The notes beneath the pieces are model-generated. The model saw only the letters and a list, made by a program, of their open reading frames with translations, was not told where the DNA came from and searched no databases. Positions 50,548 through 64,000 of a DNA stretch of 64,000 nt are shown one piece after another (within the stretch, counting starts at the first letter, position 1; each line of letters starts with the position of its first letter). The stretch is from positions 62,001 to 126,000 of IMG/VR virus record IMGVR_UViG_3300036770_003021. One strand, 5' to 3'. Source of the stretch: an uncultured virus (IMG/VR IMGVR_UViG_3300036770_003021) (taxonomy: Duplodnaviria > Heunggongvirae > Uroviricota > Caudoviricetes). The translations under genes were made by a program, and so were the position numbers.

Positions 50548-50605
50548 TATTATACAAATATAATAACTGTGACACATCATTATTGAATATGTATCTAAAA
50601 ATATT

Positions 50606-50890
50606 ATGAGTGAAGTTACTAAATTTACAGAACAAGAAATGCAAGAAATCGCAATCGTTCAATCCAAATATCAACAAAAAATATTTGAACTTGGTCAATT
50701 GCAATTAGAAGAAATTGAATTGGAACAAACAAAAACAGAATTAACTGAACGTAGATCAGCTATTCTAACAGAGTGGAAAGACATTCAAAAACTAGAAGAA
50801 AACTTACTAAATAGTCTGGCTACAAAATATGGAGATGGTAGTCTTAATTTAAAAGATGGCACATTTAAGCCAGCTCCAAAAGAACAATAA
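50606..50890 (+). CDS. hypothetical coiled-coil protein
   Basis: 94 aa; KYGDGSLNLKDGTF. Confidence 0.7.
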   Translation: MSEVTKFTEQEMQEIAIVQSKYQQKIFELGQLQLEEIELEQTKTELTERRSAILTEWKDIQKLEENLLNSLATKYGDGSLNLKDGTFKPAPKEQ

Positions 50891-50892
50891 TA

Positions 50893-50922
50893 AAAAAGCC
50901 GGTCTTAATTGACCGGCTTTTT
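50893..50922. terminator. bidirectional terminator between convergent genes
   Basis: AAAAAGCCGGTC-TTAATT-GACCGGCTTTTT. Confidence 0.85.
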
Positions 50923-50925
50923 GTT

Positions 50926-51111
50926 TTACTTAGTTGGATCACCTATAGACGCATCTTCGACAATCGCTTTAATTTCATTTTCGATTTCTTTCATGCGTTC
51001 TTTGTAGCCAGCAGCTACATCTTTAAAATCTTTCTTTACATGCAAAAGATTTTCGGTTAGTTCATATACTTTCTTTTCGGCTTCAGCCTTTGTTAATTTA
51101 ATATTACTCAT
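50926..51111 (-). CDS. hypothetical protein
   Basis: 61 aa ORF. Confidence 0.6.
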   Translation of the reverse strand: MSNIKLTKAEAEKKVYELTENLLHVKKDFKDVAAGYKERMKEIENEIKAIVEDASIGDPTK

Positions 51112-51136
51112 AACTTTAATATATATTTAATATACA

Positions 51137-51358
51137 ATGAATGACGTAAATTTTCAAGATATAAAAATTAAAGATCACCATATAACAATCTGGGCTGATA
51201 GATTTATTGTTTTAAGACACCCAGAAAAATGTGATTTATATGAAGACGAAACTTGTAGAGAGAAAATGTTAGATTATCTACAAAAAGAAGGATATATAGA
51301 TCCAGAAAAATGCAACTGTTTAGTATTTGATAGTTACATTGACTTTGAACCGCAATAA
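51137..51358 (+). CDS. hypothetical protein
   Basis: 73 aa ORF. Confidence 0.6.
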   Translation: MNDVNFQDIKIKDHHITIWADRFIVLRHPEKCDLYEDETCREKMLDYLQKEGYIDPEKCNCLVFDSYIDFEPQ

Positions 51359-51385
51359 AAAACCCCAAGCATAACTTGGGGTTTT
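51359..51385. terminator. bidirectional terminator ending the tRNA/tmRNA transcript
   Basis: AAAACCCCAAG-CATAA-CTTGGGGTTTT. Confidence 0.85.
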
Positions 51386-51390
51386 AAAAA

Positions 51391-51777
51391 TGGTGGAGAT
51401 GGCGAGGAGTCGCACCCCGCGTCCATAAAAAATTATTACTGCCAGACTACACGCTTATATATTTTATATTGTTAGGGGTTAATAATGAAAAATATCTAAA
51501 AATATTACCCTTAAGATTTACTAATATCTTGACCATTTACGCAAATCAAATATTTGGTCCAGTCCAATAATTTACACCCAACACAAATATCAGACTTCAT
51601 TGTATTGAATGTGCAACAACTTAGGCTGCAAGGGCTACAACGTCATCGTAAGAGAAGTCATAGCTAACTACGTTATCTTCAGCAGTTAATGTTTCGATAG
51701 GTGTATTAAAGAGGCCAACTATCATCCTCTACGTGCCTAACAATAGATATTTATCTATGTCAAATCTACGCATCCCC
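51391..51777 (-). ncRNA. ssrA: tmRNA; tag (A)AEDNVVSYDFSYDDVVALAA at 51621-51683
   Basis: GGGGATG/CATCTCC-ACCA acceptor with G3-U; T-arm; resume context TTAACT-GCT; ALAA-stop end. Confidence 0.93.
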
Positions 51778-51800
51778 ATAAAATTTTAAAGAACTGAAAT

Positions 51801-51874
51801 TGGAGCGGGTAGCCGGAATCGAACCGGCACATCGACCTTGGCAAGGTTGCAGGCTACCACTACATCATACCCGC
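51801..51874 (-). tRNA. tRNA-Gly(GCC)
   Basis: Manual cloverleaf, loop TT-GCC-AA, CCA. Confidence 0.92.
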
Positions 51875-51923
51875 GCTCTCTATAATATATAGTTGAAATC
51901 AATCAATATACATTAATTTAAAA

Positions 51924-51998
51924 TGGTGGACCGTAAGAGAATCGAACTCTTCCCTAAAGCTTGCAAAGCTCCCGTGCTACCACTATCACCAACAGCCC
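51924..51998 (-). tRNA. tRNA-Ala(TGC)
   Basis: Loop TT-TGC-AA, G3-U70, CCA. Confidence 0.9.
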
Positions 51999-52010
51999 AT
52001 ATCTATAAAG

Positions 52011-52039
52011 ATCTTACACCAATATATAGTGTATGTCAA
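52011..52039 (-). promoter_or_regulatory. sigma70-like internal promoter
   Basis: TTGACA-N17-TAAGAT upstream of Ala/Gly/tmRNA. Confidence 0.55.
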
Positions 52040-52049
52040 ATCAAAAATT

Positions 52050-52267
52050 CAACCCTATCCTATCTGGATCAGATTCGTCCGGGTCAGACATACAGGGGTG
52101 TATCGTGTCCCTCACGCTGTTGGAGTCAATCCCCAACACGCACATTGTTCTATCCCAGACACCTTGGCGGTTTTATGGGCATATTTAACCCACAGATTAT
52201 TAGCCGAACACAGCCGTTGGTTATTGTTTCGGACCTAGCCAAGTTCAAACCTCTACCGTTGTCTGGT
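52050..52267 (-). ncRNA. unidentified structured RNA (~215 nt)
   Basis: GC-enriched; nested helices CCAGACA/TGTCTGG, CTTGGC/GCCAAG, CCGAA/TTCGG, TGTTGG/CCAACA. Confidence 0.55.
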
Positions 52268-52275
52268 ATATAAAA

Positions 52276-52351
52276 TGGTCGGAATGACAGGACTCGCACC
52301 TGCAACCTCCTAGCTCCAAACCAGGCCGTCTACTATTGACATTACATTCCG
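52276..52351 (-). tRNA. tRNA-Pro(TGG)
   Basis: CCTGG-TT-TGG-AG-CTAGG, CCA. Confidence 0.88.
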
Positions 52352-52358
52352 ATTAAAT

Positions 52359-52434
52359 TGGCAGGGGATAAGGGAATCGAACCCCTACAGACGCGGGTCC
52401 AAAGCCCGCCGCGCTACCACTACGCAAATCCCCA
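52359..52434 (-). tRNA. tRNA-Gln(TTG)
   Basis: GCGGG-CT-TTG-GA-CCCGC, CCA. Confidence 0.9.
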
Positions 52435-52447
52435 GTTGAACTTCATA

Positions 52448-53131
52448 TTAATTTATAATAATACCATAAGATTTACACCATTTTCTCACAGCATTATCTG
52501 ACACACCATATTTTTTACCTAAACTCACCATTGTATTTTCTTTTACTTCTTTTTCCAAAATTTCTTTGGTTGGTCTATCTGTTTTTCTTTTTTCATATCT
52601 TGGTTGATGTCTCCAATCAGGATTTATTTCTGATGGTTTAATGCGGTGTTTATTTAGAGAACGACCCGCAAATGTAGATGTTTGACTATGACAATTCGGA
52701 CATAAAAATTCTAAATTTTCAATTCTATTATCATCTGATATTCCGTTTTTATGTTCTAATTGAAGAGTTAATTTTTCATTTTCCCAAATGCCATTATTTT
52801 TACATTTTGCACATTCATATTTTATTATATTAAATTTAATTAAACGTTTTTTTAAATCTGTTCTATTACAACGAGAATTTGTTGTCAATTTTTTTAATAA
52901 ATCTTCTTTTGTAACTTGTCTTGTCCAATTACTTGATTGTGTCCTAGAAAGGAAATGACTGGTATCAATTTGTAATTCAACAATTCTTTTTTTACAAGTT
53001 TTAAAATTTCCACCTTTATTTTCCATACCAAAGTGTTTTAGTAACTCAGACATAGTTTTGCTATTTTTTACTAAAGTTGTAAATTTTTCGTTTGAAACTT
53101 TCCAGATAATACTTGTTCTATTTTTACTCAT
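52448..53131 (-). CDS. HNH homing endonuclease
   Basis: CAKC, LQLEHKNG...DNRIENLEFLCPNCH, C-terminal HTH. Confidence 0.9.
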   Translation of the reverse strand: MSKNRTSIIWKVSNEKFTTLVKNSKTMSELLKHFGMENKGGNFKTCKKRIVELQIDTSHFLSRTQSSNWTRQVTKEDLLKKLTTNSRCNRTDLKKRLIKFNIIKYECAKCKNNGIWENEKLTLQLEHKNGISDDNRIENLEFLCPNCHSQTSTFAGRSLNKHRIKPSEINPDWRHQPRYEKRKTDRPTKEILEKEVKENTMVSLGKKYGVSDNAVRKWCKSYGIIIN

Positions 53132-53191
53132 ACATACATAAATATGTAAGAACAGAATGAAAGTTCAATTTTTAATATTAAATTTATTAAA

Positions 53192-53266
53192 TGGCAGGGG
53201 ATACCGGTTACGCTCCGATTCTCTCAGATTCAAAGTCTGATTTGCTACTATTACAATCAATCCCCG
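53192..53266 (-). tRNA. tRNA-Gln(TTG), second copy
   Basis: TCAGA-CT-TTG-AA-TCTGA, CCA. Confidence 0.85.
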
Positions 53267-53277
53267 GTTACTAAAAA

Positions 53278-53352
53278 TGGTGCAGTAGGAGAGAATTGAA
53301 CTCTCATTTCAAGTTTGGAAGACTCACGTAATAGCCATTATACCACTACTGC
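53278..53352 (-). tRNA. tRNA-Gly(TCC)
   Basis: TGAGT-CT-TCC-AA-ACTTG, CCA. Confidence 0.88.
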
Positions 53353-53437
53353 ATTTTAATAAATTATTAGATGTTCAGTCATCAAATATTTGATGTGTAC
53401 TATGAACCACGGACAGGTAATCTAATTTCTCATAGCG

Positions 53438-53528
53438 CGGAGGCGAAGGGTGCTGCCCCCTCAGTGGCTTTTTAAACCACGGCAATTTAGCAAATTGCTG
53501 TAGAAACCTAACTATCTACGTCACCTCC
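53438..53528 (-). tRNA. tRNA-Ser(GCT)
   Basis: GCAAT-TT-GCT-AA-ATTGC, long variable arm, no encoded CCA. Confidence 0.82.
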
Positions 53529-53612
53529 ATAAAATCTTTGACAATCTCCGATTTCTTCACGGGACGATATTATCAGTCCTCGGCTCCATTGTCAAGTGGA
53601 GTTGTATTAAAA

Positions 53613-53704
53613 TGGCGGTTGATGTCCGTACTGCCCGGACCTTCGTCTTTCAACGAACCTAGTTTTCAAGACTAGTGCAGCCAGCTTATATCTGCCTATC
53701 AACC
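53613..53704 (-). tRNA. tRNA-Ser(TGA)
   Basis: CTAGT-CT-TGA-AA-ACTAG, long variable arm, CCA. Confidence 0.87.
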
Positions 53705-53712
53705 GTATAAAT

Positions 53713-53797
53713 TGGTGGGCATAGAGGGACTTGAACCTCCACGGATTTCTCCCCGAGCTTCTAAGACTCGTGCGTCTGCCAATTTCGCCATATGCCC
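53713..53797 (-). tRNA. tRNA-Leu(TAG)
   Basis: CGAGT-CT-TAG-AA-GCTCG, variable arm, CCA. Confidence 0.92.
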
Positions 53798-53803
53798 ATA
53801 AAA

Positions 53804-53877
53804 TGGTCGGCCACGCCAGAATTGAACTGGCTCCACATGCTCCCAAAGCACGGATGCTACCGTAACACCTGTGACCG
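53804..53877 (-). tRNA. tRNA-Pro(TGG), second copy
   Basis: CGTGC-TT-TGG-GA-GCATG, CCA. Confidence 0.87.
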
Positions 53878-53899
53878 TTTGATTTGTTAATCAAAAAAA

Positions 53900-53974
53900 T
53901 GGTAGGCGGTAAAGGATTTGAACCTCTGGCCTTGACCGTGTAAAGGTCCTGCTCTTCCACTGAGCTAACCGCCC
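53900..53974 (-). tRNA. tRNA-Val(TAC)
   Basis: GACC-TT-TAC-AC-GGTC, CCA. Confidence 0.93.
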
Positions 53975-54122
53975 ATTTAAAATTTGTTGGATTGTGTACC
54001 TATCGTTGGTAGCCCTTATTTCTAAGGACCGGCGTCTCCTATTCCTTGGCTCGCCTCTACGGTTTTGATCTCAGTTCAAACTTTCTAAAGACTGTTGATG
54101 TTGTTTACATCGTTATATTTCT

Positions 54123-54150
54123 AATTTACCACACCTTCTCATTTTGTCAA
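54123..54150 (-). promoter_or_regulatory. sigma70-like promoter heading tRNA array 1
   Basis: TTGACA-N10-GTGTGG-TAAATT. Confidence 0.7.
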
Positions 54151-54162
54151 CACCTAAAAATC

Positions 54163-54225
54163 AAAAACCCGTCATTCTTTTTTTGAAGTGACGGGTTGGT
54201 TCTTTTAGGAGCAAACAACCTCGCC
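54163..54225 (-). promoter_or_regulatory. attenuator 1: antiterminator (54216-54225 with 54190-54198) overlapping terminator (54163-54197)
   Basis: GGCGAGGTTG pairs with CAACCCGTC; alternative AACCCGTCA(C)TTC/GAATGACGGGTT plus U-run. Confidence 0.7.
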
Positions 54226-54226
54226 T

Positions 54227-54280
54227 TCAACTTCCGGATGGGAGTTGACTGGCTTGACTAGGTTGTGAAATTAAATTCAT
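54227..54280 (-). CDS. putative leader peptide 1, MNLISQPSQASQLPSGS
   Basis: 17-codon ORF just upstream of attenuator hairpins; codons match array 1 amino acids. Confidence 0.7.
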   Translation of the reverse strand: MNLISQPSQASQLPSGS

Positions 54281-54327
54281 ATTGTTACTAATATATAGTA
54301 TTCAAAATACAAAATCAACAAAATTTT

Positions 54328-55236
54328 TTAAAAAGTTTTAAATCCACTCAAATCGAACTCGTTAACTTTATATCCAACACTTAGTGATGATATTGTATTA
54401 TTTATTTCGGTTATATAACTAGGAATACTTGTTCCAACACCAGCAGAACTTCCTAATGTCATATACCAACCACCTATCAATACTATTTCATTATTAATAA
54501 TAGTAGAGACAATATTGCCGCTGTCACCACCAATTAAAGCTTCAAAATATTGCGCTCTATTAGGATCTTTTGATAGATTTATTACTGTGTTATTTGATCC
54601 ATATGAACCATTAATACCTCCAAATTCTCCAATCAAAGCTTTTCTTTCTTGATCAGAATATAGTATTGGGAAATTAATTTTGTTCACATCAAAATATTTG
54701 GTGTAATTAGCTGGCAATACACTGTATACTTTTAATGAATCATCAACTTCTTTATCCAACTCACCAATTAAAATGTCTGTATTACCCACTCGTTTTGTTT
54801 TGACAACATTGTAAGTAAGTGTAACGTTATTATTATTTACAAAGAAAATAAGAAATGGAGTTGATGAATAAGGCACGTGATTTGCAAATAATACATGTTT
54901 CTTAGTTATAAGTGTTCCGCCGCCAACTCCTCCTAAAGGTACAATACAAGAAGAATATCCCGTCAAATTAATACTCTTTGCCCAACAATTATTGTTTCTA
55001 GGCCAATTATAAGGATTAACATATGGAGTTAAAATATTCTTGTCTTTCTTTTCTTTAATTAAATTGTCAAAGTTAGAATTGATATGTGACAACAAATCCA
55101 ACTTTACTACATTTGTTGTTCCAGTTATTCCTGATGATGATGCTTGTGATGATAAAGCATCTTTCTTTGCCTGATCAATTATTTTTTGTAACAAAATTGC
55201 GTGTTCCGCTAATAAACTTTCCATTATAGTAGGCAT
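54328..55236 (-). CDS. trypsin-like serine protease
   Basis: GTLITKKHVLFANH, DILIG, GGDSG catalytic triad motifs. Confidence 0.75.
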   Translation of the reverse strand: MPTIMESLLAEHAILLQKIIDQAKKDALSSQASSSGITGTTNVVKLDLLSHINSNFDNLIKEKKDKNILTPYVNPYNWPRNNNCWAKSINLTGYSSCIVPLGGVGGGTLITKKHVLFANHVPYSSTPFLIFFVNNNNVTLTYNVVKTKRVGNTDILIGELDKEVDDSLKVYSVLPANYTKYFDVNKINFPILYSDQERKALIGEFGGINGSYGSNNTVINLSKDPNRAQYFEALIGGDSGNIVSTIINNEIVLIGGWYMTLGSSAGVGTSIPSYITEINNTISSLSVGYKVNEFDLSGFKTF

Positions 55237-55278
55237 AAAATAAATCTTTCTTTATTTATAAATATGCGCAAAATAAAA

Positions 55279-55302
55279 AACCCGCTTATTTCTAAGCGGG
55301 TT
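55279..55302 (-). terminator. intrinsic terminator
   Basis: AACCCGCTTA-TTTC-TAAGCGGGTT plus U-run on minus strand. Confidence 0.8.
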
Positions 55303-55327
55303 CACATTTGTAATTCTACAATTACTA

Positions 55328-56026
55328 TTAGAAGGTCAATTTCAAACCACCAGAATATACAATGTCACCACTAAATTCACGGGTTGCCCAATTGTACTTG
55401 GTAGTATTAAAGTTGTTGTCATACCATCCAGCACTTACAAATGGAGTAAATACACCAAATGAAGTTTCAAACGGACGAGTCAATGCCAACTTTGCATTTA
55501 CAGCGGTATAATCTTCTACCTTACCATACTCAACTCCAGGAGTTACAACAAATCCAAATGGAAGTTTTTGAGCACGTTCTGCACCAACAAATACACCACT
55601 TTGCTTCAAGTCTACATCATAATATCCACGAACATATGGTGTAACAATCTTGTTTGGTAGTGCCAACTTAACACCAAATTCAGTGCTGTTGGGAATACCA
55701 AAGTTACCAGCTTGGTGACGAGTTACAGTAGTATCCAATCGTGCGGAAAATACATCCTTCCACACATTTACTTCTTTTCCAGCACCCAAAGTCCAATGAG
55801 ACTGATCTAGGTCGCCATTGGCCAAAAGAGTACCACCCAAATATACATCCGCATACTTTAAACTCTTTACAGCACCTACACCCACAAATGGCGTGCCTTC
55901 AGAACGAGCTACACCGTTAACGATGTACTGGTTGTTATAACCAGCCTCTACTGAGATGTTAGAATTATCTCCAGCAGTAACTGCTAGAGCGGTCAACAAT
56001 GACACTAATACTAATACTTTCTTCAT
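55328..56026 (-). CDS. outer-membrane beta-barrel protein (porin-like)
   Basis: Signal peptide, amphipathic beta-strands, C-terminal GGLKLTF BAM-type signal. Confidence 0.75.
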   Translation of the reverse strand: MKKVLVLVSLLTALAVTAGDNSNISVEAGYNNQYIVNGVARSEGTPFVGVGAVKSLKYADVYLGGTLLANGDLDQSHWTLGAGKEVNVWKDVFSARLDTTVTRHQAGNFGIPNSTEFGVKLALPNKIVTPYVRGYYDVDLKQSGVFVGAERAQKLPFGFVVTPGVEYGKVEDYTAVNAKLALTRPFETSFGVFTPFVSAGWYDNNFNTTKYNWATREFSGDIVYSGGLKLTF

Positions 56027-56164
56027 ATTTTTAACTATCCTTTTTGTTTGTTTTGTTATTTACACCACACTAATTCAGATTACAAAAAAATAACCATCTT
56101 TAATGCGTTTTGGGACCGTCCCAAATATTGTTGTATATAAATAGTTTTATATTTTTATAATAAA

Positions 56165-56488
56165 TTATTTATTTACCGCTGACTTTTTGAGTTTTTTATA
56201 CAAAGCTTTGTCTTTCTCAGGCAAATAAACATACGACGCTTTTTGTGACTTTTTATTTTCACCCAAAACACTAAGCGTATCTTCACTTACCTCCAACACT
56301 TTACCAATAGCATTTTTAATAAACCTAAAACTATCAGTACCAGATATTTCTATACAAATGCCGTAATTTAAACTTTTATATTGTACATCAGTAGCTCCAT
56401 AAAAAGAACACAAAATGTCTTTAATTTTAGCCTTCTTGTCTTCACTAAAGACCAGATTAGCCATATCAATTTTACTTAATTCATTCAT
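56165..56488 (-). CDS. hypothetical protein
   Basis: 107 aa ORF. Confidence 0.6.
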   Translation of the reverse strand: MNELSKIDMANLVFSEDKKAKIKDILCSFYGATDVQYKSLNYGICIEISGTDSFRFIKNAIGKVLEVSEDTLSVLGENKKSQKASYVYLPEKDKALYKKLKKSAVNK

Positions 56489-56499
56489 ACTATACTTTT

Positions 56500-56527
56500 A
56501 TTATACTTGTTAATGTCACATTGTCAA
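56500..56527 (-). promoter_or_regulatory. sigma70-like promoter
   Basis: TTGACA-N16-TATAAT. Confidence 0.7.
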
Positions 56528-56589
56528 TAAAAAATAAAACGATTAATTTTTACATTAATCGTTGTACTTTATATAAATTTATTTAATTT

Positions 56590-57003
56590 TTACTTTGATT
56601 TTTTCATCAACTGCAACGCCTTTTTTAACTTTGGGTCTTGTTGAGCTTTTGATTGTAACCAAGCATTGTAATTGCTTTTTTCACTACGAGCGTCTTCACT
56701 GTCTCTATATAGTTTAGCATATTTCTTTACAATGTCTCTAAATGGATCACCACTTTCTTTAAGTCTGGCAATTTTATCTTTCAACATCTGTTTGTATTTC
56801 TCAATAGAACCATAATCTTTTGCTCTACTTGGATCAGGATTTTTTAACAAATTTTCCAAGTCTTTGATGTCTTTAGCTTTATCAGTTTCAGATAAAGTAG
56901 CAGTCAATTTATCACTCTCTACTTCAGCTGCATTGTCAAAATCTTCAACTAAAATTTCCTTGGTCAAACTTTTGATTAACTTTTTTAAATCGTTCTTGGT
57001 CAT
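56590..57003 (-). CDS. hypothetical protein with head-protein-type leader
   Basis: MTKNDLKKLIKSLTKEILVE. Confidence 0.65.
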   Translation of the reverse strand: MTKNDLKKLIKSLTKEILVEDFDNAAEVESDKLTATLSETDKAKDIKDLENLLKNPDPSRAKDYGSIEKYKQMLKDKIARLKESGDPFRDIVKKYAKLYRDSEDARSEKSNYNAWLQSKAQQDPKLKKALQLMKKSK

Positions 57004-57038
57004 ATGTTATAAATATAAAAATTGTAAAATAGGTACAC

Positions 57039-57209
57039 TTATTTTTGTTTTATGCTTTCACTCCAACCAACTCTGTGTTTGGTCATCCAATCTACCAACG
57101 CTTGTTCAAATCCTATATCGTTTCCAAGTTTTTCACTCTCTATCCATTTATGTTTTTCAATTTCTTTTTTCAATTCCAAAAACTTTTGATAGAGATTACT
57201 TTTTTCCAT
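57039..57209 (-). CDS. small DUF4032-like protein (56 aa)
   Basis: Manual translation MEKSNLYQKFLELKKEIEKHKWIESEKLGNDIGFEQALVDWMTKHRVGWSESIKQK. Confidence 0.7.
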   Translation of the reverse strand: MEKSNLYQKFLELKKEIEKHKWIESEKLGNDIGFEQALVDWMTKHRVGWSESIKQK

Positions 57210-57271
57210 ACCCAAATAAATAGAAAATAAAATGGAGTATTGTGTAATATACGAATTAATTTTAAAATTTT

Positions 57272-57362
57272 TGGAGCACGATCAAGGTTACGCTCCTTGC
57301 ATATGTATTTTCATACAATGATGTTTTGCAGACATCTCAGTTCTCTAGCTCTGTCATCGTGC
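57272..57362 (-). tRNA. tRNA-Cys(GCA) with long variable arm
   Basis: GATGT-CT-GCA-AA-ACATC, U73, CCA. Confidence 0.8.
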
Positions 57363-57373
57363 TTTATATAAAA

Positions 57374-57448
57374 TGGTTGTCACGGTAGGACTTGCACCCA
57401 CAATCTTCTGGGTCAGAACCAGCTGCGATTCTATTACGCTACGTGACA
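57374..57448 (-). tRNA. tRNA-Gln(CTG)
   Basis: CTGG-TT-CTG-AC-CCAG, U1-A72, CCA. Confidence 0.75.
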
Positions 57449-57450
57449 AT

Positions 57451-57525
57451 TGGAGCCTGCAATTGGTTTTGACCCAATATCTATCAATTTACGAAATTGA
57501 TGCTTTACTATTAAGCTATACAGGC
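57451..57525 (-). tRNA. tRNA-Thr(CGT)
   Basis: TCAAT-TT-CGT-AA-ATTGA, CCA. Confidence 0.85.
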
Positions 57526-57531
57526 ATTAAA

Positions 57532-58335
57532 TTATTCGTCCGCATTTGAACCAAAAATACGCTTCCAAAAACCCACTTTTTTAGGTTTTTCCTCTTGTTT
57601 TGATTCATCTACTTGATTAATTTCTTTTGATAAATTATTTGAGTGCTGATTTGAAATTTTCATCAAAACTTCCGCACCTTTTGGCCACTCACCCAATTTG
57701 TTTTTAAATTCATAACCACTTTTTTTCATATTTTGTCTCAAATTTTGAGCCAAAAGTGCATTTTCTCTCTTCAATTCCTCTATAATTTTTTCATACTCAA
57801 CAATCTTGTTCTTCAAGAAATCTCTTTCTTTTGTAAGCTCTTCAATCTTAGCCACAAGCTCATTTTGATCTTTATCAGTCTTTGCAACTTTAAGCTCATC
57901 ACTCAAATCTACGATCTCTTTAGTCATTTTTACAAGCGTATTACGCAATGATTTTAAATCAGATTCAAGCGCAGATTTTTCTTGGGTCAAATCTTTAATC
58001 TTTATGTCTTTTTCATCAGATGATAATTTTAACTTCTCAGTAATATTCTGTAACTGAGTTAAATTAGTATGCAATATACTCAATTTATTGTCATAACTCT
58101 TCAATAATGAAGTCATTTCCACATTTTTTTGATTTAAATTGGTAATCAATAAACTTTGATTTACAACAATCTCAGACTGATTAGCAACTTTTTTAGACAA
58201 AACTTTATTGTCTTTATTTAATGAACTAAATAATGCGTATAATCCAAAAATTACCAATACAATTACAGCAATTATTGAATATAATACCTTTTTATTAGTA
58301 AACGAAAATGTTTGGGGAGAGTTTGTAGATTCCAT
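57532..58335 (-). CDS. membrane-anchored coiled-coil protein
   Basis: N-terminal TM helix, long heptads, C-terminal GFWKRIFG amphipathic helix. Confidence 0.75.
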   Translation of the reverse strand: MESTNSPQTFSFTNKKVLYSIIAVIVLVIFGLYALFSSLNKDNKVLSKKVANQSEIVVNQSLLITNLNQKNVEMTSLLKSYDNKLSILHTNLTQLQNITEKLKLSSDEKDIKIKDLTQEKSALESDLKSLRNTLVKMTKEIVDLSDELKVAKTDKDQNELVAKIEELTKERDFLKNKIVEYEKIIEELKRENALLAQNLRQNMKKSGYEFKNKLGEWPKGAEVLMKISNQHSNNLSKEINQVDESKQEEKPKKVGFWKRIFGSNADE

Positions 58336-58388
58336 AAATTTATTTTATTATATATATAATACCCTCACACTTAAATATATTTTTAAAA

Positions 58389-58462
58389 TGGAGCCTCCAG
58401 CAGGTACCGCCCCTGCGTTTCATCATTACCAATGATGTGTAATACTTTTATACTATGAAGGC
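58389..58462 (-). tRNA. tRNA-Thr(GGT)
   Basis: CATCA-TT-GGT-AA-TGATG, CCA. Confidence 0.87.
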
Positions 58463-58467
58463 AAAAA

Positions 58468-58545
58468 TGGCACACCCGGCAGGATTCGAACCTGCAATCT
58501 TCTCGTTAGAACCGAGTCGCTTTAGTCCAGTTTAGCTACGAGTGC
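58468..58545 (-). tRNA. tRNA-Arg(TCT)
   Basis: CTCG-GT-TCT-AA-CGAG, CCA. Confidence 0.88.
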
Positions 58546-58687
58546 GTTAAAATTACCCACCACTGTTCGAACAATGGTGGCACCAACACGATAGTTTGCT
58601 AATAGGCTTATTCGGTTTGTGTTCGTCGTCAACACAAATCCCGCTATCTCTTTTACCACACGACCTGCTTCATAGAGTTGGTGAAAA

Positions 58688-58761
58688 TGGTTGACCGTGC
58701 CGGTTACGCTCCGGCGTAGGACGATTATCAGTCGTCTATTCTGCTATTGAATTAACGGTCA
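58688..58761 (-). tRNA. tRNA-Ile(GAT)
   Basis: GACGA-CT-GAT-AA-TCGTC, CCA. Confidence 0.87.
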
Positions 58762-58768
58762 ATTGAAA

Positions 58769-58844
58769 TGGCGAGGTATATGGGTGCTGCCCCCACTATC
58801 TTTTCCGTGACAGGGAAATGAGTCTGCTGTTCCTCTTATACCCC
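58769..58844 (-). tRNA. tRNA-Asp(GTC)
   Basis: TTTCC-CT-GTC-AC-GGAAA, CCA. Confidence 0.87.
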
Positions 58845-58935
58845 AAAAAATTGGTGCTGTGCTCTCCACGCCGTCTCTGTGTTTTACCGATTGTACCGGT
58901 CGGCAGTCACTTATGGGGCCAGTTACCCATTAAAT

Positions 58936-59014
58936 TGGTGGAGCCAGTGGGTAATGCTCCCACACGAATCGTCCGGTTAAAAGCCGGCTGCCCGTCTATT
59001 GTGGCTTTGACTCC
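58936..59014 (-). tRNA. tRNA-Lys(TTT)
   Basis: CCGG-CT-TTT-AA-CCGG, CCA. Confidence 0.85.
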
Positions 59015-59108
59015 ATAAATTGGTGGGTCTTTCCCTCTGTCACTCTTTAATCCCTAGGATTTCAACCCCGGCAAATATCGGTTACGAGTTACCGCTAGAC
59101 TTATAAAA

Positions 59109-59184
59109 TGGTGGAATCATCGGGATTTGAACCCGAATCACGATATTAAGAGTATCGTAGTCTAGCCAATTGACTTATGATTCC
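59109..59184 (-). tRNA. tRNA-Lys(CTT)
   Basis: CGATA-CT-CTT-AA-TATCG, CCA. Confidence 0.92.
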
Positions 59185-59226
59185 ATTATTAAAAATTTCT
59201 TCTTACATTGTCAACGAACTATAATC

Positions 59227-59254
59227 ATCTTACCACACTTTATAACTTCGTCAA
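59227..59254 (-). promoter_or_regulatory. sigma70-like internal promoter in tRNA array 2
   Basis: TTGACG-N10-GTGTGG-TAAGAT. Confidence 0.7.
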
Positions 59255-59272
59255 CAGCTTTTTAAAAAAACT

Positions 59273-60022
59273 TTAAACGTTACTTTGTTTCTTTGGATAT
59301 GGTTGAATTGACTTAATCAATCCACCCAATATTCTTTTACCATCACTAGAATTTTGTCCGGATAAAATATAAATGTACATATGTTTTCCAGTAGCAGTTC
59401 TTATTTCAAATGGACTATTAGGATTGGTTCTTGCATCATTTGCTGCATCTTTACCAGTTTCAAAACCATACTTCTTTATTTGTGGTAATCTATACACCCA
59501 CTTGTTTTCTTTTTTATCCCACAAACGTTTTGTATCTTTACTCTTGCCTAAATAAATTGCATTTGTTGCTTGATATATAGATCCAGTATGTCCCTGTCCA
59601 CTATCAGCCCGTGTAATAACAACCTTTAATTCGGGATAATCCTGTTTAATCTTTTTATTACCCAAACCAATTACATACGACGCCAAGTTGCTTAACTCAG
59701 GTATTTGTTTTGCCTCAGGTTTCAAATATAATCTCAATAACTCAAATACTTCATTCTTTTGCAATAAACTGTTGCCCTCTGCATCTACAGCTATTTCTTC
59801 ATAATCTTGTGGCTTGGTGGTTTGTCCATAAACAATCACTCCTACCATATCCACATTACCATCTGTCTTCTTGTACATCACACCATAATTAGCAGCCACC
59901 GCCGTAGGATATGTCTTTAAATAATGCTGCTTAATAAAATTCAATACTTCAGATTTACTCTTGGGTTCCAAATATACACTATCTTTCAAACCCTCCAATA
60001 TTAATTCTTTCAATTTAATCAT
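59273..60022 (-). CDS. Mom-like (GNAT-fold) DNA modification protein
   Basis: FIKQHY, ELLRLY, ADSGQGHTGSIYQATNAIYLG. Start moved to MIKLKEL (60022). Confidence 0.75.
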   Translation of the reverse strand: MIKLKELILEGLKDSVYLEPKSKSEVLNFIKQHYLKTYPTAVAANYGVMYKKTDGNVDMVGVIVYGQTTKPQDYEEIAVDAEGNSLLQKNEVFELLRLYLKPEAKQIPELSNLASYVIGLGNKKIKQDYPELKVVITRADSGQGHTGSIYQATNAIYLGKSKDTKRLWDKKENKWVYRLPQIKKYGFETGKDAANDARTNPNSPFEIRTATGKHMYIYILSGQNSSDGKRILGGLIKSIQPYPKKQSNV

Positions 60023-60055
60023 ATGATATAAATATCTGCATGCATCGTCAAAAAA

Positions 60056-60131
60056 TGGTCCCAATTGTTGGTTCCGCCCCAACCTCTCAAGTTCTTCAGA
60101 CTTGCGCTTTCACTAGGTTAGCTTAACTGGG
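60056..60131 (-). tRNA. tRNA-Phe(GAA)
   Basis: CAAGT-CT-GAA-GA-ACTTG, CCA. Confidence 0.85.
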
Positions 60132-60232
60132 ATTATAAATCTATTGACAAGTCAAAGGAATCGAACCTTTTCGGAACAGAGTCGCCCGCTCCTTTACCAC
60201 GCCCTGCGCACTAGCACCTGTCAAAAACTAAA

Positions 60233-60333
60233 TTGTGTGGTTGGAATCGAACCAACGGCCCGTGCTTATTCACACTTTTACGGTGTCATTTACCATCATA
60301 GTGAGCACTGATCTACCCCTGAACTACACACAA
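60233..60333 (-). tRNA. tRNA-like gene with 37-nt expanded anticodon loop; identity undetermined
   Basis: Acceptor TTGTGTG/CACACAA, D-arm, GTGCT/AGCAC stem, T-arm GTTGG-TTCGATT-CCAAC. Confidence 0.65.
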
Positions 60334-60340
60334 TCTAAAA

Positions 60341-60727
60341 TTAAATTTTGTTTTTTGTTTTTTGCCATTTTTCTACACAATATTCGTGGTATTCTTTTTT
60401 GCAAATTTCACATCTACATTTATGATTTATATAACCAGATTTACCGTGTTTCCAAGATTCTCTATTAATTAAATAATCTTTGTTATCTAAACTTTTCTTC
60501 AAATGACACGGATAACATAATAATTGACATTTGTGTATTTCTCTTACAAAGACTTCTATATTTGTTGTAAACATAGAAGATATTTCATTCACTTTCGTTC
60601 TTGGATCTATATGGTCAAATTGTAAATCTTTTTCAGAATTACATTTACAACATTTACCTCCAAGCATTTCAAGTCCAAGTTGTTTTCTTTTTTTTCTATA
60701 GTTTTGTATATATTCTTTTGTAGGCAT
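60341..60727 (-). CDS. HNH endonuclease
   Basis: CCKC, LQFDHIDP, CQLLCYPCH, HG..GY..HKCRCEIC. Confidence 0.85.
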   Translation of the reverse strand: MPTKEYIQNYRKKRKQLGLEMLGGKCCKCNSEKDLQFDHIDPRTKVNEISSMFTTNIEVFVREIHKCQLLCYPCHLKKSLDNKDYLINRESWKHGKSGYINHKCRCEICKKEYHEYCVEKWQKTKNKI

Positions 60728-60807
60728 AAATTTCTCCTACAAATAAATATCATTGAATTAAACTAAAGTTACAAAAAGTTACAATGTTGTAATTGTTGTT
60801 AATAAAA

Positions 60808-60893
60808 TGGTGGGGTATGTAGGTAATGCTCCTACCCAGCCCGAAGGCAACGGTTTTACAGACCGTTCTGCGTCTTTATCAGTATAATACCCC
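60808..60893 (-). tRNA. tRNA-Tyr(GTA)
   Basis: ACGGT-CT-GTA-AA-ACCGT, variable arm, CCA. Confidence 0.87.
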
Positions 60894-61031
60894 AAAAAAT
60901 ATATAATGTATGATGAACAATGAAATTATTTAAATTTCTTAAGGCACTTTATGTTCATACTATTGCAATTTGATCAACTGCCTAACCCTCAATCAGCATA
61001 CTCCATACATCATATAAAACTATTGAAAGAG

Positions 61032-61154
61032 CTCCAGAGGAGGGTTTCGAACCCCCAACCCTGCGGTTAACTTTGGCCTTGTGAGATTTGCACTCTCTAT
61101 TAAATAATACTTTATGGCCCACAGCCGCATGCTCTACCATTGAGCTACTCTGGA
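61032..61154 (-). tRNA. tRNA-Asn(GTT) interrupted by a 51-nt insertion in the anticodon loop
   Basis: Canonical Asn body; removing 61072-61122 restores TGCGG-CT-GTT-AA-CCGCA. Confidence 0.8.
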
Positions 61155-61162
61155 ATTGAAAA

Positions 61163-61240
61163 TGGCTCCAGCCCTTGGCTCCGCCCCAAGCTCGACACGG
61201 TTTAACAGACCGCCGGTTACACTAAGTTTCCTTGACTGGA
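61163..61240 (-). tRNA. tRNA-Asn(GTT)
   Basis: GCGGT-CT-GTT-AA-ACCGT, CCA. Confidence 0.82.
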
Positions 61241-61384
61241 ATTAAAAATTAAATTTGAAAGTGTGGATTCTCTTACCACCACTTAGGGCGGACTGCCCAG
61301 TTCTGACTTCAACAGACTCTCTTTCAAAAAATGTTTACTGGATTTCACTATGCTTGTTCCACCTACTAACTATAACCTCGTCAG

Positions 61385-61414
61385 ATTATAACCTTCAATG
61401 TCTATCAGTGTCAA
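61385..61414 (-). promoter_or_regulatory. consensus sigma70 promoter inside array 2
   Basis: TTGACA-N18-TATAAT. Confidence 0.55.
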
Positions 61415-61431
61415 TACATTACTTACTACTT

Positions 61432-61508
61432 CAACTATTGATTCAGATTCGAACTGAATGACTACTGCATACAGCGCAGTTGCTTTACCAATTAAGCTAC
61501 GTTCGTTG
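61432..61508 (-). pseudogene. tRNA-like element with intact D, anticodon and T arms but disrupted acceptor stem
   Basis: TAGCTTAATTGGTAAAGC; ACTGC-GCTGTAT-GCAGT; TTCAG-TTCGAAT-CTGAA; no CCA. Confidence 0.6.
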
Positions 61509-61531
61509 CCTTCACCTAATGTATTTAAAAA

Positions 61532-62203
61532 TTATTTATATACTCTACCTTTAACATATCCGTTTGTCAAGTATGTTTGTAGTTGTTCTTTTTTAATTTT
61601 AAGATTTTTATTTGTTTCAGAATGATATACCCAACAAGTTCCATATTGGGAATTTTTTGCACCGGATTGTGCTACTTTTAGTTTTTCTCCGATTTTCTTT
61701 TTTGTATCTTCTTTATGTTTTTTACCGGTCCAATGAAAAGCATTTTGTTTCCATTTTTCCTTTAAAGATGTTGATACTTTCTGTTTCCATTCTTCAAATA
61801 ATCCTTTTTCAATTAAAAATTCTTTTATCTTATCTCCTGTCAACAAATTCTTTTTCCTAATCTCAATATTTTTATGATGTATATTTTTTCCAGATTCGTT
61901 TATATAAGAATAACCGCCATAACCACCTTCCATTATATTGTAAGTATTATTCGATTCAATAAATAATTGGTTTACAATTTCTCTTTCTTTGGAAAACATT
62001 TCTTCAGCGGTATCAAATATAAATAAAATTTCTTTAATAAAATTTTCTTCACCATATTTTTGTATTGCTCTTTTTAGAAGTTTTCCAGAACCCATATAAT
62101 TGTCCTGCAAATTTTTTGTTTTATGCATTCCAATGTAAATTTTTTGGTTCAATTTATTTGTAATCTTATATATCGTGTATTTATATTGAGCGTTCGTGTC
62201 CAT
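61532..62203 (-). CDS. GIY-YIG (Seg-like) homing endonuclease with NUMOD3-like motif
   Basis: TIYKITN...YIGMH, YMGSG, YNI..GG, GKKHKEDTKKKI. Start moved to MDTNAQ (62203). Confidence 0.9.
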   Translation of the reverse strand: MDTNAQYKYTIYKITNKLNQKIYIGMHKTKNLQDNYMGSGKLLKRAIQKYGEENFIKEILFIFDTAEEMFSKEREIVNQLFIESNNTYNIMEGGYGGYSYINESGKNIHHKNIEIRKKNLLTGDKIKEFLIEKGLFEEWKQKVSTSLKEKWKQNAFHWTGKKHKEDTKKKIGEKLKVAQSGAKNSQYGTCWVYHSETNKNLKIKKEQLQTYLTNGYVKGRVYK

Positions 62204-62252
62204 AATAATAAATATAGACACGAACTCAAATAATATTATTTTTTTTGAAATG

Positions 62253-62327
62253 CATCCACCGTAAGAATCGAACTTACCCACGGGCTTTTGGAGAGCCTGT
62301 CGCCTAATCCTTGGAACATTGGCGGAT
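62253..62327 (-). tRNA. tRNA-Trp(CCA)
   Basis: GGCT-CT-CCA-AA-AGCC; full CCA not encoded. Confidence 0.8.
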
Positions 62328-62337
62328 ATACTATAAA

Positions 62338-62414
62338 TGGCAGTCGCATTGGGATTTGAACCCTATTCTCCATCTTGAGAGGATGGTGTCCTATCACACA
62401 TAGACGATGCGACC
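62338..62414 (-). tRNA. tRNA-Glu(CTC)
   Basis: CCATC-CT-CTC-AA-GATGG, CCA. Confidence 0.88.
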
Positions 62415-62519
62415 GTTAAATATTGTGACGAGATTACCCCAGTAGGAATTACCCGGCATGCAAGGGCTCCTTCAATCTTTTGGGTTTAAGTCTCTTTGTT
62501 GCCCTCGTCACTTTTAAAA

Positions 62520-62597
62520 TGGTAGCCCCACGGGGAATTGAACCCACGATTTGTAGATTGAAAGTCTACCGTCCTATACCCATTAGACGATGAGGCC
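62520..62597 (-). tRNA. tRNA-Glu(TTC)
   Basis: GTAGA-CT-TTC-AA-TCTAC, CCA. Confidence 0.9.
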
Positions 62598-62608
62598 ATT
62601 ATATAAAT

Positions 62609-62686
62609 TGGTGCTTCAGTGAGGATTCGAACCCCAAACTCAACGTTCGTAGCGTTGCGTGATAAATCCATTTTCACCACCGAAGC
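62609..62686 (-). tRNA. tRNA-Arg(ACG)
   Basis: CAACG-CT-ACG-AA-CGTTG, CCA. Confidence 0.9.
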
Positions 62687-62692
62687 ATAAAT

Positions 62693-62768
62693 TGGTTACC
62701 CCACTTGGATTTTCACCAAGGTTGATGTCTCAGAGAACACATCCGTCCTAAACCTAGACGATAGGGTA
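62693..62768 (-). tRNA. Glu-type tRNA with 10-nt anticodon loop
   Basis: D-arm CGTCTAG..AGGACG as in the Glu tRNAs; GATGT-GTTCTCTGAG-ACATC; CCA. Confidence 0.6.
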
Positions 62769-62776
62769 ATTAAAAT

Positions 62777-62852
62777 TGGGGTGAATAAGGAGATTTGCAC
62801 TCCCTTTGATTGCTTCACAGGCAATGCTCTTACTACATAGAGGATATTCACC
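62777..62852 (-). tRNA. tRNA-His(GTG)
   Basis: ATTGC-CT-GTG-AA-GCAAT, G-1/C73, CCA. Confidence 0.87.
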
Positions 62853-62864
62853 ATTACTATAAGC

Positions 62865-62946
62865 TGGAGCCGTTGACAGGATTCGAACCTGCGATGATTT
62901 TCCAGTTTACAAAACTGGTGTTTTCAACCACTCAACTCACAACGGC
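62865..62946 (-). tRNA. tRNA-Thr(TGT)
   Basis: CCAGT-TT-TGT-AA-ACTGG, CCA. Confidence 0.87.
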
Positions 62947-62959
62947 GTTAAATTTTCTT

Positions 62960-63173
62960 TACTTCAACATTCACAGTAATCACCTCAGTAATACTGTCAT
63001 CGCCCTATGGGTTCTGTATTCCAGCATAACACCCACGGACCAATCAATTGATTTTCCCAGACTTTACCCTATCGTCAATTTCTTGACTCACTGGAGGAGG
63101 TTCAACAGATGGAGTTTCAAACCTTCCTTACTCTTTATTCAGTCTATCACAGCTTTCGCCATTGTCAACTGAC
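62960..63173 (-). ncRNA. unidentified structured RNA (~210 nt) at the head of array 2
   Basis: GNRA hairpins ATGGC-GAAA-GCTGT and GTCAA-GAAA-TTGAC; TCAGTT/GACTGA; TGGGT/ACCCA. Confidence 0.5.
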
Positions 63174-63230
63174 TTTTAAAATTTCTTTTTCGTCATCCAA
63201 TGAACTACTTACTTCGTTCACTGTTTAACT

Positions 63231-63258
63231 ACTTTACCACACATCCAAAGAACGTCAA
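63231..63258 (-). promoter_or_regulatory. sigma70-like promoter heading tRNA array 2
   Basis: TTGACG-N10-GTGTGG-TAAAGT. Confidence 0.7.
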
Positions 63259-63268
63259 CCCAGAAAAT

Positions 63269-63347
63269 AAAAAAACCGTCACTTTTTTTCGGTGACGGTT
63301 GATATTGTTTGGGTTTCAGATCTACATTTACACAATATCAGCCGCCA
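63269..63347 (-). promoter_or_regulatory. attenuator 2: antiterminator (63332-63347 with 63293-63308) overlapping terminator (63269-63300)
   Basis: TGGCGGCTGATATTGT pairs with ACAATATCAACCGTCA (15 of 16); alternative AACCGTCAC/GTGACGGTT plus U-run. Confidence 0.8.
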
Positions 63348-63411
63348 TACCTCTATCTTCACGATTTGTAAAGGTATTCCAACGCTTAATATTTGTATAA
63401 TGTACTTTCAT
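63328..63411 (-). CDS. putative leader peptide 2, MKVHYTNIKRWNTFTNREDRGMAADIV
   Basis: 27-codon ORF overlapping the antiterminator arm; codons match array 2 anticodons. Confidence 0.78.
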   Translation of the reverse strand: MKVHYTNIKRWNTFTNREDRGMAADIV

Positions 63412-63444
63412 TACGTTAATATATATCAAGAAATTTACTAAACG

Positions 63445-63594
63445 TCAATATTTTTTTGCAAAATTCTTTATAACCTTATAACAACTATAAAAACAATACA
63501 GTGTCAAAGCACTCAAAGCACCCACTCCAAAACTCATACCAATTGTTATAACCCAACCAATTATATTACGTTGCTCTTCGCTCAATGTAAACAT
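63445..63594 (-). CDS. small membrane protein (49 aa)
   Basis: Manual translation MFTLSEEQRNIIGWVITIGMSFGVGALSALTLYCFYSCYKVIKNFAKKY. Confidence 0.5.
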   Translation of the reverse strand: MFTLSEEQRNIIGWVITIGMSFGVGALSALTLYCFYSCYKVIKNFAKKY

Positions 63595-63670
63595 ATCGCA
63601 CAATACATACTTGTTTTTCAATCATTAAACTTATTATATTAAATTAAAATTATAAACAACTATTAACGCA

Positions 63671-64000
63671 ATGGTATCTATATCTGTTATGCACAATTTT
63701 ACCATAGACTATACAGACGGACTTGTTATAAACAACAACTACAACGATGTTGAATTCGCCAAAGACAAACAATCACACTACATGGTCAAAACTTACTTTG
63801 TGCACAAAAAAATAAAACGCAGCCTACAATCTCACCCAGATCAATTGGGCATCACAGCCACCATAGAAGAAACACACTCATCTTCAGATAAAACACTGCT
63901 CACAACCAATAACTGCAACCTGGGATGTTGGCTAATGCCAAGCTTTGTAAAACACTTTGTTCCATATCACGTAGACATTTATTACAACGACAAATTGTAT
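63671..64000 (+). CDS. partial hypothetical protein (runs off window)
   Basis: Open frame from ATG 63671/63689 to the window end. Confidence 0.55.
   Translation, partial: MVSISVMHNFTIDYTDGLVINNNYNDVEFAKDKQSHYMVKTYFVHKKIKRSLQSHPDQLGITATIEETHSSSDKTLLTTNNCNLGCWLMPSFVKHFVPYHVDIYYNDKLY

Follow-up and report, generated by a model that had tools for sequence, protein, structure and literature searches.

The DNA analysed here (the window) is a stretch of 64,000 nucleotides (nt), comprising bases 62001-126000 of the 134-kb IMG/VR record IMGVR_UViG_3300036770_003021 (completeness rating 48%). It derives from a large uncultured freshwater phage, whose genome (G000) has a G+C content of 34%, and encodes a tail sheath, tail fibres, an SbcCD-like nuclease and two arrays of transfer RNA (tRNA) genes, each of which is preceded by a leader/terminator module. 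One module, att1 (54160..54318), lies upstream of array 1 (53974-51801), which begins with tRNA-Val at position 53974 and adjoins a transfer-messenger RNA (tmRNA) gene. Its paralogue, att2 (63269-63448), lies upstream of array 2 (62946-57272), whose first gene is tRNA-Thr (TGT; 62865..62946, like the array itself identified with ARAGORN and Rfam). All features are located on the minus strand unless stated otherwise. We rather favour the reading of att2 as a ribosome-mediated (leader-peptide) attenuator of the trp/his type placed before a phage tRNA array, with a paralogous copy before the other array. A BLASTN search with positions 62900-64000 against 50,697 deposited phage genomes returned no matches; the relatives compared below include one complete record (G001) of 295,831 bp.

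Structure and conservation of the leader modules

The att2 leader open reading frame (ORF) consists of 27 codons and a TAA stop codon (MKVHYTNIKRWNTFTNREDRGMAADIV; 63411-63328, TAA at 63330-63328), and the 27-aa leader can be read directly on the minus strand with exactly the codons listed in the preliminary description of this DNA. Region 1 (63387..63404, codons 3-9) is predicted by folding to pair with region 2 and the stop codon (helix 1:2). Between them, folds and consensus place an inner hairpin within the ORF (63349..63377), possibly a pause hairpin. Region 2 (63347-63332, codons 22-27, TGGCGGCTGATATTGT) represents the 5' arm of the antiterminator and stops 1 nt short of the stop codon; it is separated by a variable linker (63309..63327), which forms the loop of helix 2:3, from region 3 (63308-63293, ACAATATCAACCGTCA), the 3' arm. 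The intrinsic terminator (3:4; 63300-63269) has a 9-bp stem with the arms AACCGTCAC (63300-63292) and GTGACGGTT (63282-63274), a 9-nt loop and a tail of seven T that ends at 63269. It was missed on this strand by our terminator scan because loops were allowed only up to 8 nt. The last six bases of region 3 are at the same time six of the nine bases of the terminator 5' arm. A helix of 16 positions thus exists as described earlier, but it contains only 14 Watson-Crick pairs, together with one G.U pair and one C.A mismatch.

The 2:3 duplex of the window has a predicted energy of -20.4 kcal/mol, compared with -8.6 kcal/mol (sd 2.0) after dinucleotide shuffling of the upstream part, and none of 300 shuffles equalled it. 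The energies of the competing structures decrease in magnitude from helix 1:2 with the inner hairpin (-23.5 kcal/mol) through the 2:3 hairpin (-18.0 kcal/mol) to the terminator hairpin (-12.4 kcal/mol). Helix 1:2, the inner hairpin and the terminator were predicted together in the minimum-free-energy folds of all seven att2 variants folded, and all seven switched to helix 2:3 when region 4 was omitted. The RNAalifold consensus likewise contains helix 1:2 (columns 13-25 with 78-89), the inner hairpin and the terminator. The pairs of helix 1:2 are almost invariant across the variants and therefore carry no covariation signal.

Relatives of att2 were obtained by pattern scans of viral and metagenome contigs and from related records, yielding 32 distinct sequences that extend from the ATG to the T-run. 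Scans with 14- and 15-base patterns gave 118 and 72 loci, mostly by chance, of which those with BLAST matches to att2 or att1 came from 4 and 11 different contigs, respectively. A 16-base scan gave 40 loci, only one of them leader-like, and an ORF-based scan 14 new loci, comprising seven further leader-like and seven unrelated ones. Among the nine genomes examined, att2 precedes a tRNA array in all and att1 does so in eight, G009 being without att1.

The att2 ORF is open, with its stop codon in place, in 32/32 variants. The three indels found within it measure 6, 6 and 3 nt, all multiples of 3, and the linker after the stop varies freely in length (17-22 nt). Variable columns are distributed over codon positions 1, 2 and 3 as 6, 5 and 11. 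Indels that preserve the frame, together with this distribution over codon positions, speak for translation of the ORF. For the first 15 codons, the ratio of nonsynonymous to synonymous polymorphism (pN/pS) is 0.25 (19 distinct sequences, whose pairs are non-independent). The Trp, Tyr and Phe residues of the peptide are invariant, and most variants contain a Cys-x-Cys motif.

Neither leader has a Shine-Dalgarno motif. Motifs of this kind occur upstream of only 18% of the 97 long ORFs of the phage, compared with 9% of random places; by contrast, TATAT is found within 20 nt upstream of 29% of the 97 long-ORF starts, as against 5% at random, and also upstream of both leaders. Upstream of the att2 leader is a promoter-like site (63420..63448) with the hexamer TTGACG (63448-63443), a 17-nt spacer ending in TG-A and the -10 element TATATA (63425-63420), and the ATG follows 8 nt past the latter. 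The promoter scan rule excluded this site (T at position 6 of the -10 element). A TTGAYR-type hexamer at equal spacing is nevertheless present in most of 36 aligned variants, being weak in the type represented by L229. If the site acts as a promoter, the 5' untranslated region (UTR) would comprise only 1-3 nt and the mRNA would be nearly leaderless.

The predicted energy of helix 2:3 is -17.4 to -23.1 kcal/mol across 32/32 att2 variants, compared with about -9.5 kcal/mol for shuffles, at most 1/300 of which reach the native value. The noncoding region 3 arm is conserved like the ORF, with a mean identity of 0.98 as opposed to 0.63 for the linker loop. The synonymous sites of GAT ATT GT in region 2 are invariant in 32/32 sequences, and the terminator stem is either invariant or altered by wobble changes only. 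A 9-bp block of helix 2:3 is paired in 288/288 cells and shows a single, one-sided change (U-A to U.G in 9/32). As this block hardly varies, it holds no information either way on the compensatory changes for which the preliminary description had suggested looking. In the six-base block that competes with the terminator, one region 2/3 pair occurs in three states: the window type has G.U, the L229 type A-U, and G009 (locus L301) G-C, the last because region 3 reads CCGCCA there. The terminator arms of G009 are CCGCCA and TGGCGG, the opposite arm being altered too, and its region 2 pairs perfectly (TGGCGGTTGAT with ATCAACCGCCA, -19.2 kcal/mol, 0/300 shuffles). A matched change of the terminator arm is seen in this one diverged relative. 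In G008, a 1-nt insertion into the att2 ORF creates a TGA stop codon inside region 2, at the cost of the last three residues; both arms remain intact despite the frameshift (-20.7 kcal/mol, 0/300). One pair of the inner hairpin is changed on both sides, from A-U in 24 to C-G in seven sequences, and since the latter look like one clade, this compensation probably reflects a single event.

The att1 module is organized similarly. It comprises a promoter-like site (TTGATT at 54318-54313, a 17-nt spacer and TATATT at 54295-54290), a leader ORF of 17 codons (MNLISQPSQASQLPSGS, 54280-54227) and a terminator with the arms AACCCGTCA and TGACGGGTT, which are related to those of att2; its region 2 starts at or just past the stop codon. 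The sample contained 13 sequences of the window type and nine loci of a diverged type. Window-type 2:3 duplexes have energies of -12.7 to -17.6 kcal/mol, compared with -7.5 kcal/mol for shuffles, and the native value was reached by at most 2/300 shuffles in 8/10 variants and by 5 and 13 in the other two. The diverged att1 modules of G008 and G010 carry another terminator (AACCGTTGGTC / GATCAACGGTT), and their region 2, which differs in turn, is complementary to the altered terminator arm (-16.2 kcal/mol, 1/300, and -23.8 kcal/mol, 0/300). The leader-1 peptides MNLISQPSQASQLPSGS, MNLSVQSSVASGQPSPSLLPSAS, MRNSLQPSLSVAGQPSLT and MNLLSVQSVVASGQPSPSALPSAC are of low complexity and differ in sequence; lengths of 17, 18, 23 and 24 aa occur among the leader-1 peptides.

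Leader codons, tRNA arrays and promoters

The number of tRNA genes detected depended on the tool (18 with default ARAGORN, 20 with ARAGORN allowing introns and 25 with Rfam). Fourteen tRNAs had originally been named for positions 57272-62946. Twelve of them were found (Lys-TTT, Lys-CTT, His, Thr-TGT, Thr-GGT, Asn, Ile-GAT, Arg-ACG, Arg-TCT, Trp, Phe and Glu-TTC), although detection of those for Lys-TTT, Ile and Thr-GGT and of one for Phe required Rfam or a relaxed ARAGORN threshold. The other two, tRNA-Tyr and tRNA-Asp, were absent from the window by ARAGORN (70% threshold) and Rfam (E<=1), and BLAST searches with the Tyr and Asp tRNAs of relatives found no counterparts in it. Array 2 of the window also has no Val tRNA. 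The isoacceptor pairs said to be sampled by the leader (AAA/AAG, ACA/ACC and CGT/AGA) are all represented in array 2. Under liberal wobble rules, array 2 holds cognates for 17 of the 26 codons after Met, compared with a mean of 11.2 in windows of the phage's own ORFs (P=0.04), so that decoding "almost entirely by array 2" was an overstatement. For leader 1, the corresponding numbers are 8/16 codons read by array 1 and a null mean of 4.6 (P=0.08). In the complete genome G001, hand counts gave a cognate in the array behind for 12/16 leader-1 and 19/24 leader-2 codons.

At the level of amino acids, the types served by array 2 were found in leader 2 in 77/80 type-by-genome cells, again counted by hand: 9/11 in the window, 11/11 in G001 and in G002, 8/8 in G005, 10/10 in G006, 12/12 in G008, 5/5 in G009 and 11/12 in G010. 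These genomes are kin, so the counts are non-independent; the figures for relatives represent hand counts and rough binomials with an assumed background, and the tRNA-like gene at 62693-62768 and its homologues as well as ARAGORN calls with long insertions were omitted. Of the diverged leader-1 peptides, MNLISQPSQASQLPSGS, MNLSVQSSVASGQPSPSLLPSAS and MRNSLQPSLSVAGQPSLT have 14/16, 21/22 and 14/17 residues, respectively, within the array-1 alphabet (V, P, L, A, S, G and Q), proportions reached by 560/36081, 109/35583 and 935/35998 windows of phage proteins, and two further variants have 21/23 (MNLLSVQSVVASGQPSPSALPSAC) and 20/23 residues within it. Ser, Pro, Ala and Gly, whose tRNAs are encoded only in array 1, do not occur in leader-2 codons 2-18 of any variant seen. 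Leu (TTG) occurs in these codons solely in the G008 lineage, and among the genomes compared only G008 has tRNA-Leu(CAA) and tRNA-Leu(TAA) in array 2. To judge from these comparisons, the amino-acid alphabet of each leader appears to match the array behind it across relatives, the link being a trend only.

The arrays show several further features. The tmRNA at the end of array 1 (51391-51777; Rfam RF00023, 104.9 bits) is phage-encoded, and ARAGORN predicts the tag AEDNVISYNFTSRDAVALAA for its counterpart in G001, those of G002 and G010 having similar ones. The tRNA-like gene at 62693-62768, which is kept in G001, G002 and G010, has an anticodon stem that encloses about 10 bases rather than 7 and is called by ARAGORN as '???' with a four-base anticodon (ctct) or as Gln-CTG with a 3-nt insert; it could specify a quadruplet-reading or otherwise unusual tRNA. 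Anticodon-loop inserts of 51 nt and 30 nt are present in tRNA-Asn (61031-61154) and tRNA-Phe (60231-60334), respectively, and recur in several relatives, but ordinary group I introns would be longer. Four tRNAs (Gln, 53195-53265; Thr, 58389-58462; Ile, 58688-58761; Phe, 60056-60131) have an encoded CCA end and T-loops in which the usual GTTCGAATC is replaced by GCGTAAC, GCGGTAC or GCGGAAC; these genes are missed by default ARAGORN and detected by Rfam and relaxed ARAGORN. A degenerate tRNA-like element at 61433-61506 (Rfam, 34.9 bits), whose acceptor stem is unpaired, may be a decayed tRNA gene. Genes for HNH or homing endonucleases and a Mom-like protein are interspersed between the tRNA genes (52448-53131, 60341-60727, 61532-62281 and 59273-60082). 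The tRNA content of the arrays varies among relatives, and turnover driven by these interspersed elements would fit this pattern.

The promoter scan identified a sigma-70-like promoter directly behind the att2 terminator (63231..63258; TTGACG, 16 nt, TG-extended TAAAGT). A promoter at this position is kept in att1 (GTTGAC, 11 nt, GTGTGGTAAA), in att2 and in relatives. Two more promoter-like sites follow in successive 90-nt steps (63168-63141 and 63078-63051). Perfect-consensus promoters are located inside array 2 (61414-61385) and between the arrays (56527-56500), and a further site inside array 2 (59214-59185) matches the consensus at 11/12 positions. A shared hairpin motif occurs behind the post-terminator promoters, at 63130-63100 in the window and after the att1 promoter in L150, L010 and others; it reads GGGGTTGAAACTCTATCTGATGTCCCC in att1 relatives and AAGGTTTGAAACTCCATCTGTTGAACCTCC behind the second att2 promoter.

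Contigs from four metatranscriptome runs cover 62514-63276 in a patchy manner, and in a relative, a single RNA-library contig links 63392-63323 of the leader ORF with 63126-63031 behind the terminator, possibly through DNA carry-over. Neither the ends of transcripts nor their strand or level can be read from such contigs, which may contain DNA, so they allow no conclusion on termination, and stretches without cover carry no weight. The deepest RNA-library contig cover, with a summed depth of up to 127 in one run, falls on 62964-63057, just upstream of tRNA-Thr, where a stable hairpin (GTCCGTGGGT ... ACCCATAGGGC) is located; this segment could be a small RNA or a leader fragment of high stability.

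Proposed mechanism and alternative explanations

Judged by sequence comparison, the presence and conservation of the predicted attenuator architecture, consisting of the micro-ORF and the helices 1:2, 2:3 and 3:4, appear well supported, also in relatives whose terminator has changed. From this architecture, we infer a transcription start, translation of the ORF, a kinetic order of folding, an effect on the tRNA genes and a sensed signal, which would be connected as follows. The transcript would start a few bases upstream of the ATG. Without a ribosome, region 1 would pair with region 2, leading to formation of the terminator; a ribosome that reaches the stop codon would cover region 2, again with formation of the terminator. 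A ribosome lingering at about codons 3-17, on the other hand, would cover region 1 and leave region 2 free to pair with region 3 ahead of the synthesis of region 4, so that the polymerase would read on toward the tRNA genes. Since most residues of each leader are amino acids served by the array behind it, slow decoding of these codons would raise read-through and thereby exert negative feedback on tRNA supply.

The full leader was folded at equilibrium with an assumed ribosome footprint of 29 nt held unpaired. The terminator had a probability of 0.98-1.00 in ribosome-free RNA and also when the A site was placed at the stop codon or within the last ~12 codons. In the window, A-site codons 7-13 gave values of 0.00-0.56, and in L226, codons 9-11 gave 0.08-0.11. 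These folds agree in part with the earlier claim that a ribosome at the stop codon lets the terminator form and one stalled earlier does not. The placement of the stop codon that lets a terminating ribosome mask region 2 is common to the layouts of att2, att1 and G008. The equilibrium states are close in energy, and the model therefore needs kinetic trapping, with helix 2:3 formed before region 4 exists.

We consider it probable that the element is a translation-coupled attenuator of some kind, and an effect on the tRNA genes would be less assured than that. A specific response to the supply of the array's own tRNAs is a more doubtful proposition, which leans on the alphabets described above. 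Tentatively, and at somewhat less than even chances, the two leaders may be viewed as multi-codon sensors, one for {S,Q,P,A,L,G,V} and array 1 and the other for {K,R,H,Y,T,N,I,W,F,D,E,C,V} and array 2, through which the phage would gauge its own decoding capacity. Slow decoding of any codon of the alphabet would open the terminator and feed transcription into the respective array. Such feedback might be of greatest importance at late stages of infection, if the host-type promoters downstream of the terminator are then silent.

Several observations weigh against this account. Terminator probability is at least 0.76 in 21/27 ribosome positions of the window (at least 0.93 in 19) and falls only to 0.55-0.85 in L229. 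No compensatory change was found in the 9-bp block among the 32 variants, and the apparent three-way covariation depends on a single diverged lineage. The first tRNA gene is separated from the terminator by a conserved promoter, and there are the internal promoters as well, so that read-through could add only part of the transcription and cannot gate it; gating is conceivable, as a matter of speculation, only if those promoters are silent at some stage. A third tRNA cluster in G001 has a promoter and an ORF of the 75-aa class and is without a leader/terminator module. Leader 2 is unchanged where tRNAs have been lost, as in G005 and G009 (by ARAGORN) and, for Tyr, Asp and Val, in the window. 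Each leader codon is used only 1-3 times, without classical codon runs, and the match in composition could stem in part from base composition, leader 1 being C-rich and leader 2 A-rich. The pN/pS value would be compatible as well with a peptide that has its own function.

Alternatively, the module could be a general translation-status switch or insulator, in which the terminator shields the strong tRNA promoters from transcription arriving from upstream, the micro-ORF merely tunes termination, with read-through whenever ribosomes are few or stall for whatever cause, and the match in composition is a by-product of base composition without any array-specific relation. A promoter is placed directly behind the terminator in all variants, the leader ignores gains and losses of tRNAs in most relatives, and the codon enrichment in the window is marginal. 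We nevertheless regard this explanation as unlikely, as the leader-1 peptides, though diverged, are still composed mainly of the seven amino acids of array 1, codons 2-18 of leader 2 include none for Ser, Pro, Ala or Gly in the variants seen, and the Leu codon arises in the one lineage whose array 2 has Leu tRNAs.

It is still less likely that att2 is an ordinary small protein gene followed by an intrinsic terminator, whose 25-27-aa peptide (17-24 aa in the paralogue) has a function of its own and whose pairing affects only how stable its own mRNA is or how well it is translated. Such a gene would account for the pN/pS of 0.25, the invariant Trp, Tyr and Phe residues and the Cys-x-Cys motif of most variants, and leader peptides that act in trans are known (peTrpL, PMC7298713). 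It would leave unexplained, however, why the synonymous sites of region 2 are invariant and the noncoding 3' arm is equally conserved, why a frameshift that drops the last three residues spares both arms, why the leader-1 peptides change in sequence and length while keeping their composition, and why region 2 changes in step with the terminator.

A small regulatory RNA of about 140 nt that extends from its own promoter to its own terminator, with the conserved single strand AACAATATCAA next to the terminator as a seed acting in trans and the ORF as a secondary feature, would have the typical layout of 5' stem-loop, linker, conserved stretch and terminator with U tail, and released attenuator RNAs can act in trans (rnTrpL, PMC6614838). 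Such an RNA is nevertheless highly improbable, given that in-frame indels and the codon-position pattern point to translation, all variants show perfect complementarity between the 'seed' and the ORF end, even where both have changed, RNA-library contigs cover this part in 1/4 runs at a depth of 9, compared with up to 127 at 62964-63057, and no Rfam family matches it. A DNA-level inverted repeat or bidirectional terminator was also considered and rejected; the plus-strand ORF (63671 onward) heads away from the site, and the hairpin read on the plus strand has a poor T tail.

Comparison with known attenuators

In Proteobacteria, trpL, hisL, leuL, thrL, ilvL and pheL are leader-peptide attenuators of amino-acid operons (cf. 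PMC1183508 and PMC3082878). The modules described here share with this class a short ORF before an intrinsic terminator, the mutually exclusive helices 1:2, 2:3 and 3:4, a stop codon positioned such that a terminating ribosome would block the antiterminator, and the order of stability 1:2 > 2:3 > 3:4. Unlike these attenuators, they belong to a phage and precede tRNA genes instead of biosynthetic genes, use many codons 1-3 times each rather than a run of a single codon, have a promoter between the terminator and the downstream genes, and possess a leader without Shine-Dalgarno motif and with almost no 5' UTR. The Rfam leader families (Trp, His, Leu and Thr) and the T-box gave no matches at 63269-63448 or 54160-54318; a cmscan search of 50500-64000 at E<=1 returned tRNAs, one tmRNA and weak chance matches.

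The pheST attenuator of E. coli controls phenylalanyl-tRNA synthetase and responds to the supply of charged tRNA. It resembles the modules in that a component of the translation apparatus would be subject to leader-peptide attenuation, and differs in sensing one amino acid through a run of Phe codons, in its synthetase target and in being cellular rather than viral. T-box elements likewise couple tRNA status to terminator read-through via an antiterminator, but they bind uncharged tRNA directly and have no ORF. In the rnTrpL/peTrpL system of Sinorhizobium, attenuator RNA and peptide are reported to act in trans, and a comparable activity would fit the purifying selection seen here.

Leader-peptide attenuation is used in amino-acid biosynthesis, in a synthetase operon and for some resistance genes. 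To our knowledge, no case is known for tRNA genes or in phages, and we are aware of little on how phage tRNA arrays are regulated. Full-text literature searches, judged from abstracts, did not turn up an element of this kind upstream of tRNA genes in phages. The modules would thus belong to the same mechanism class as the known attenuators, the new aspects being the context of phage and tRNA array and a leader that samples many codons. If this reading holds true, a virus would tune its tRNA supply to translational demand by means of a small cis element of about 180 nt, conserved across dozens of environmental phage sequences, which would represent a natural attenuator that senses many codons simultaneously.

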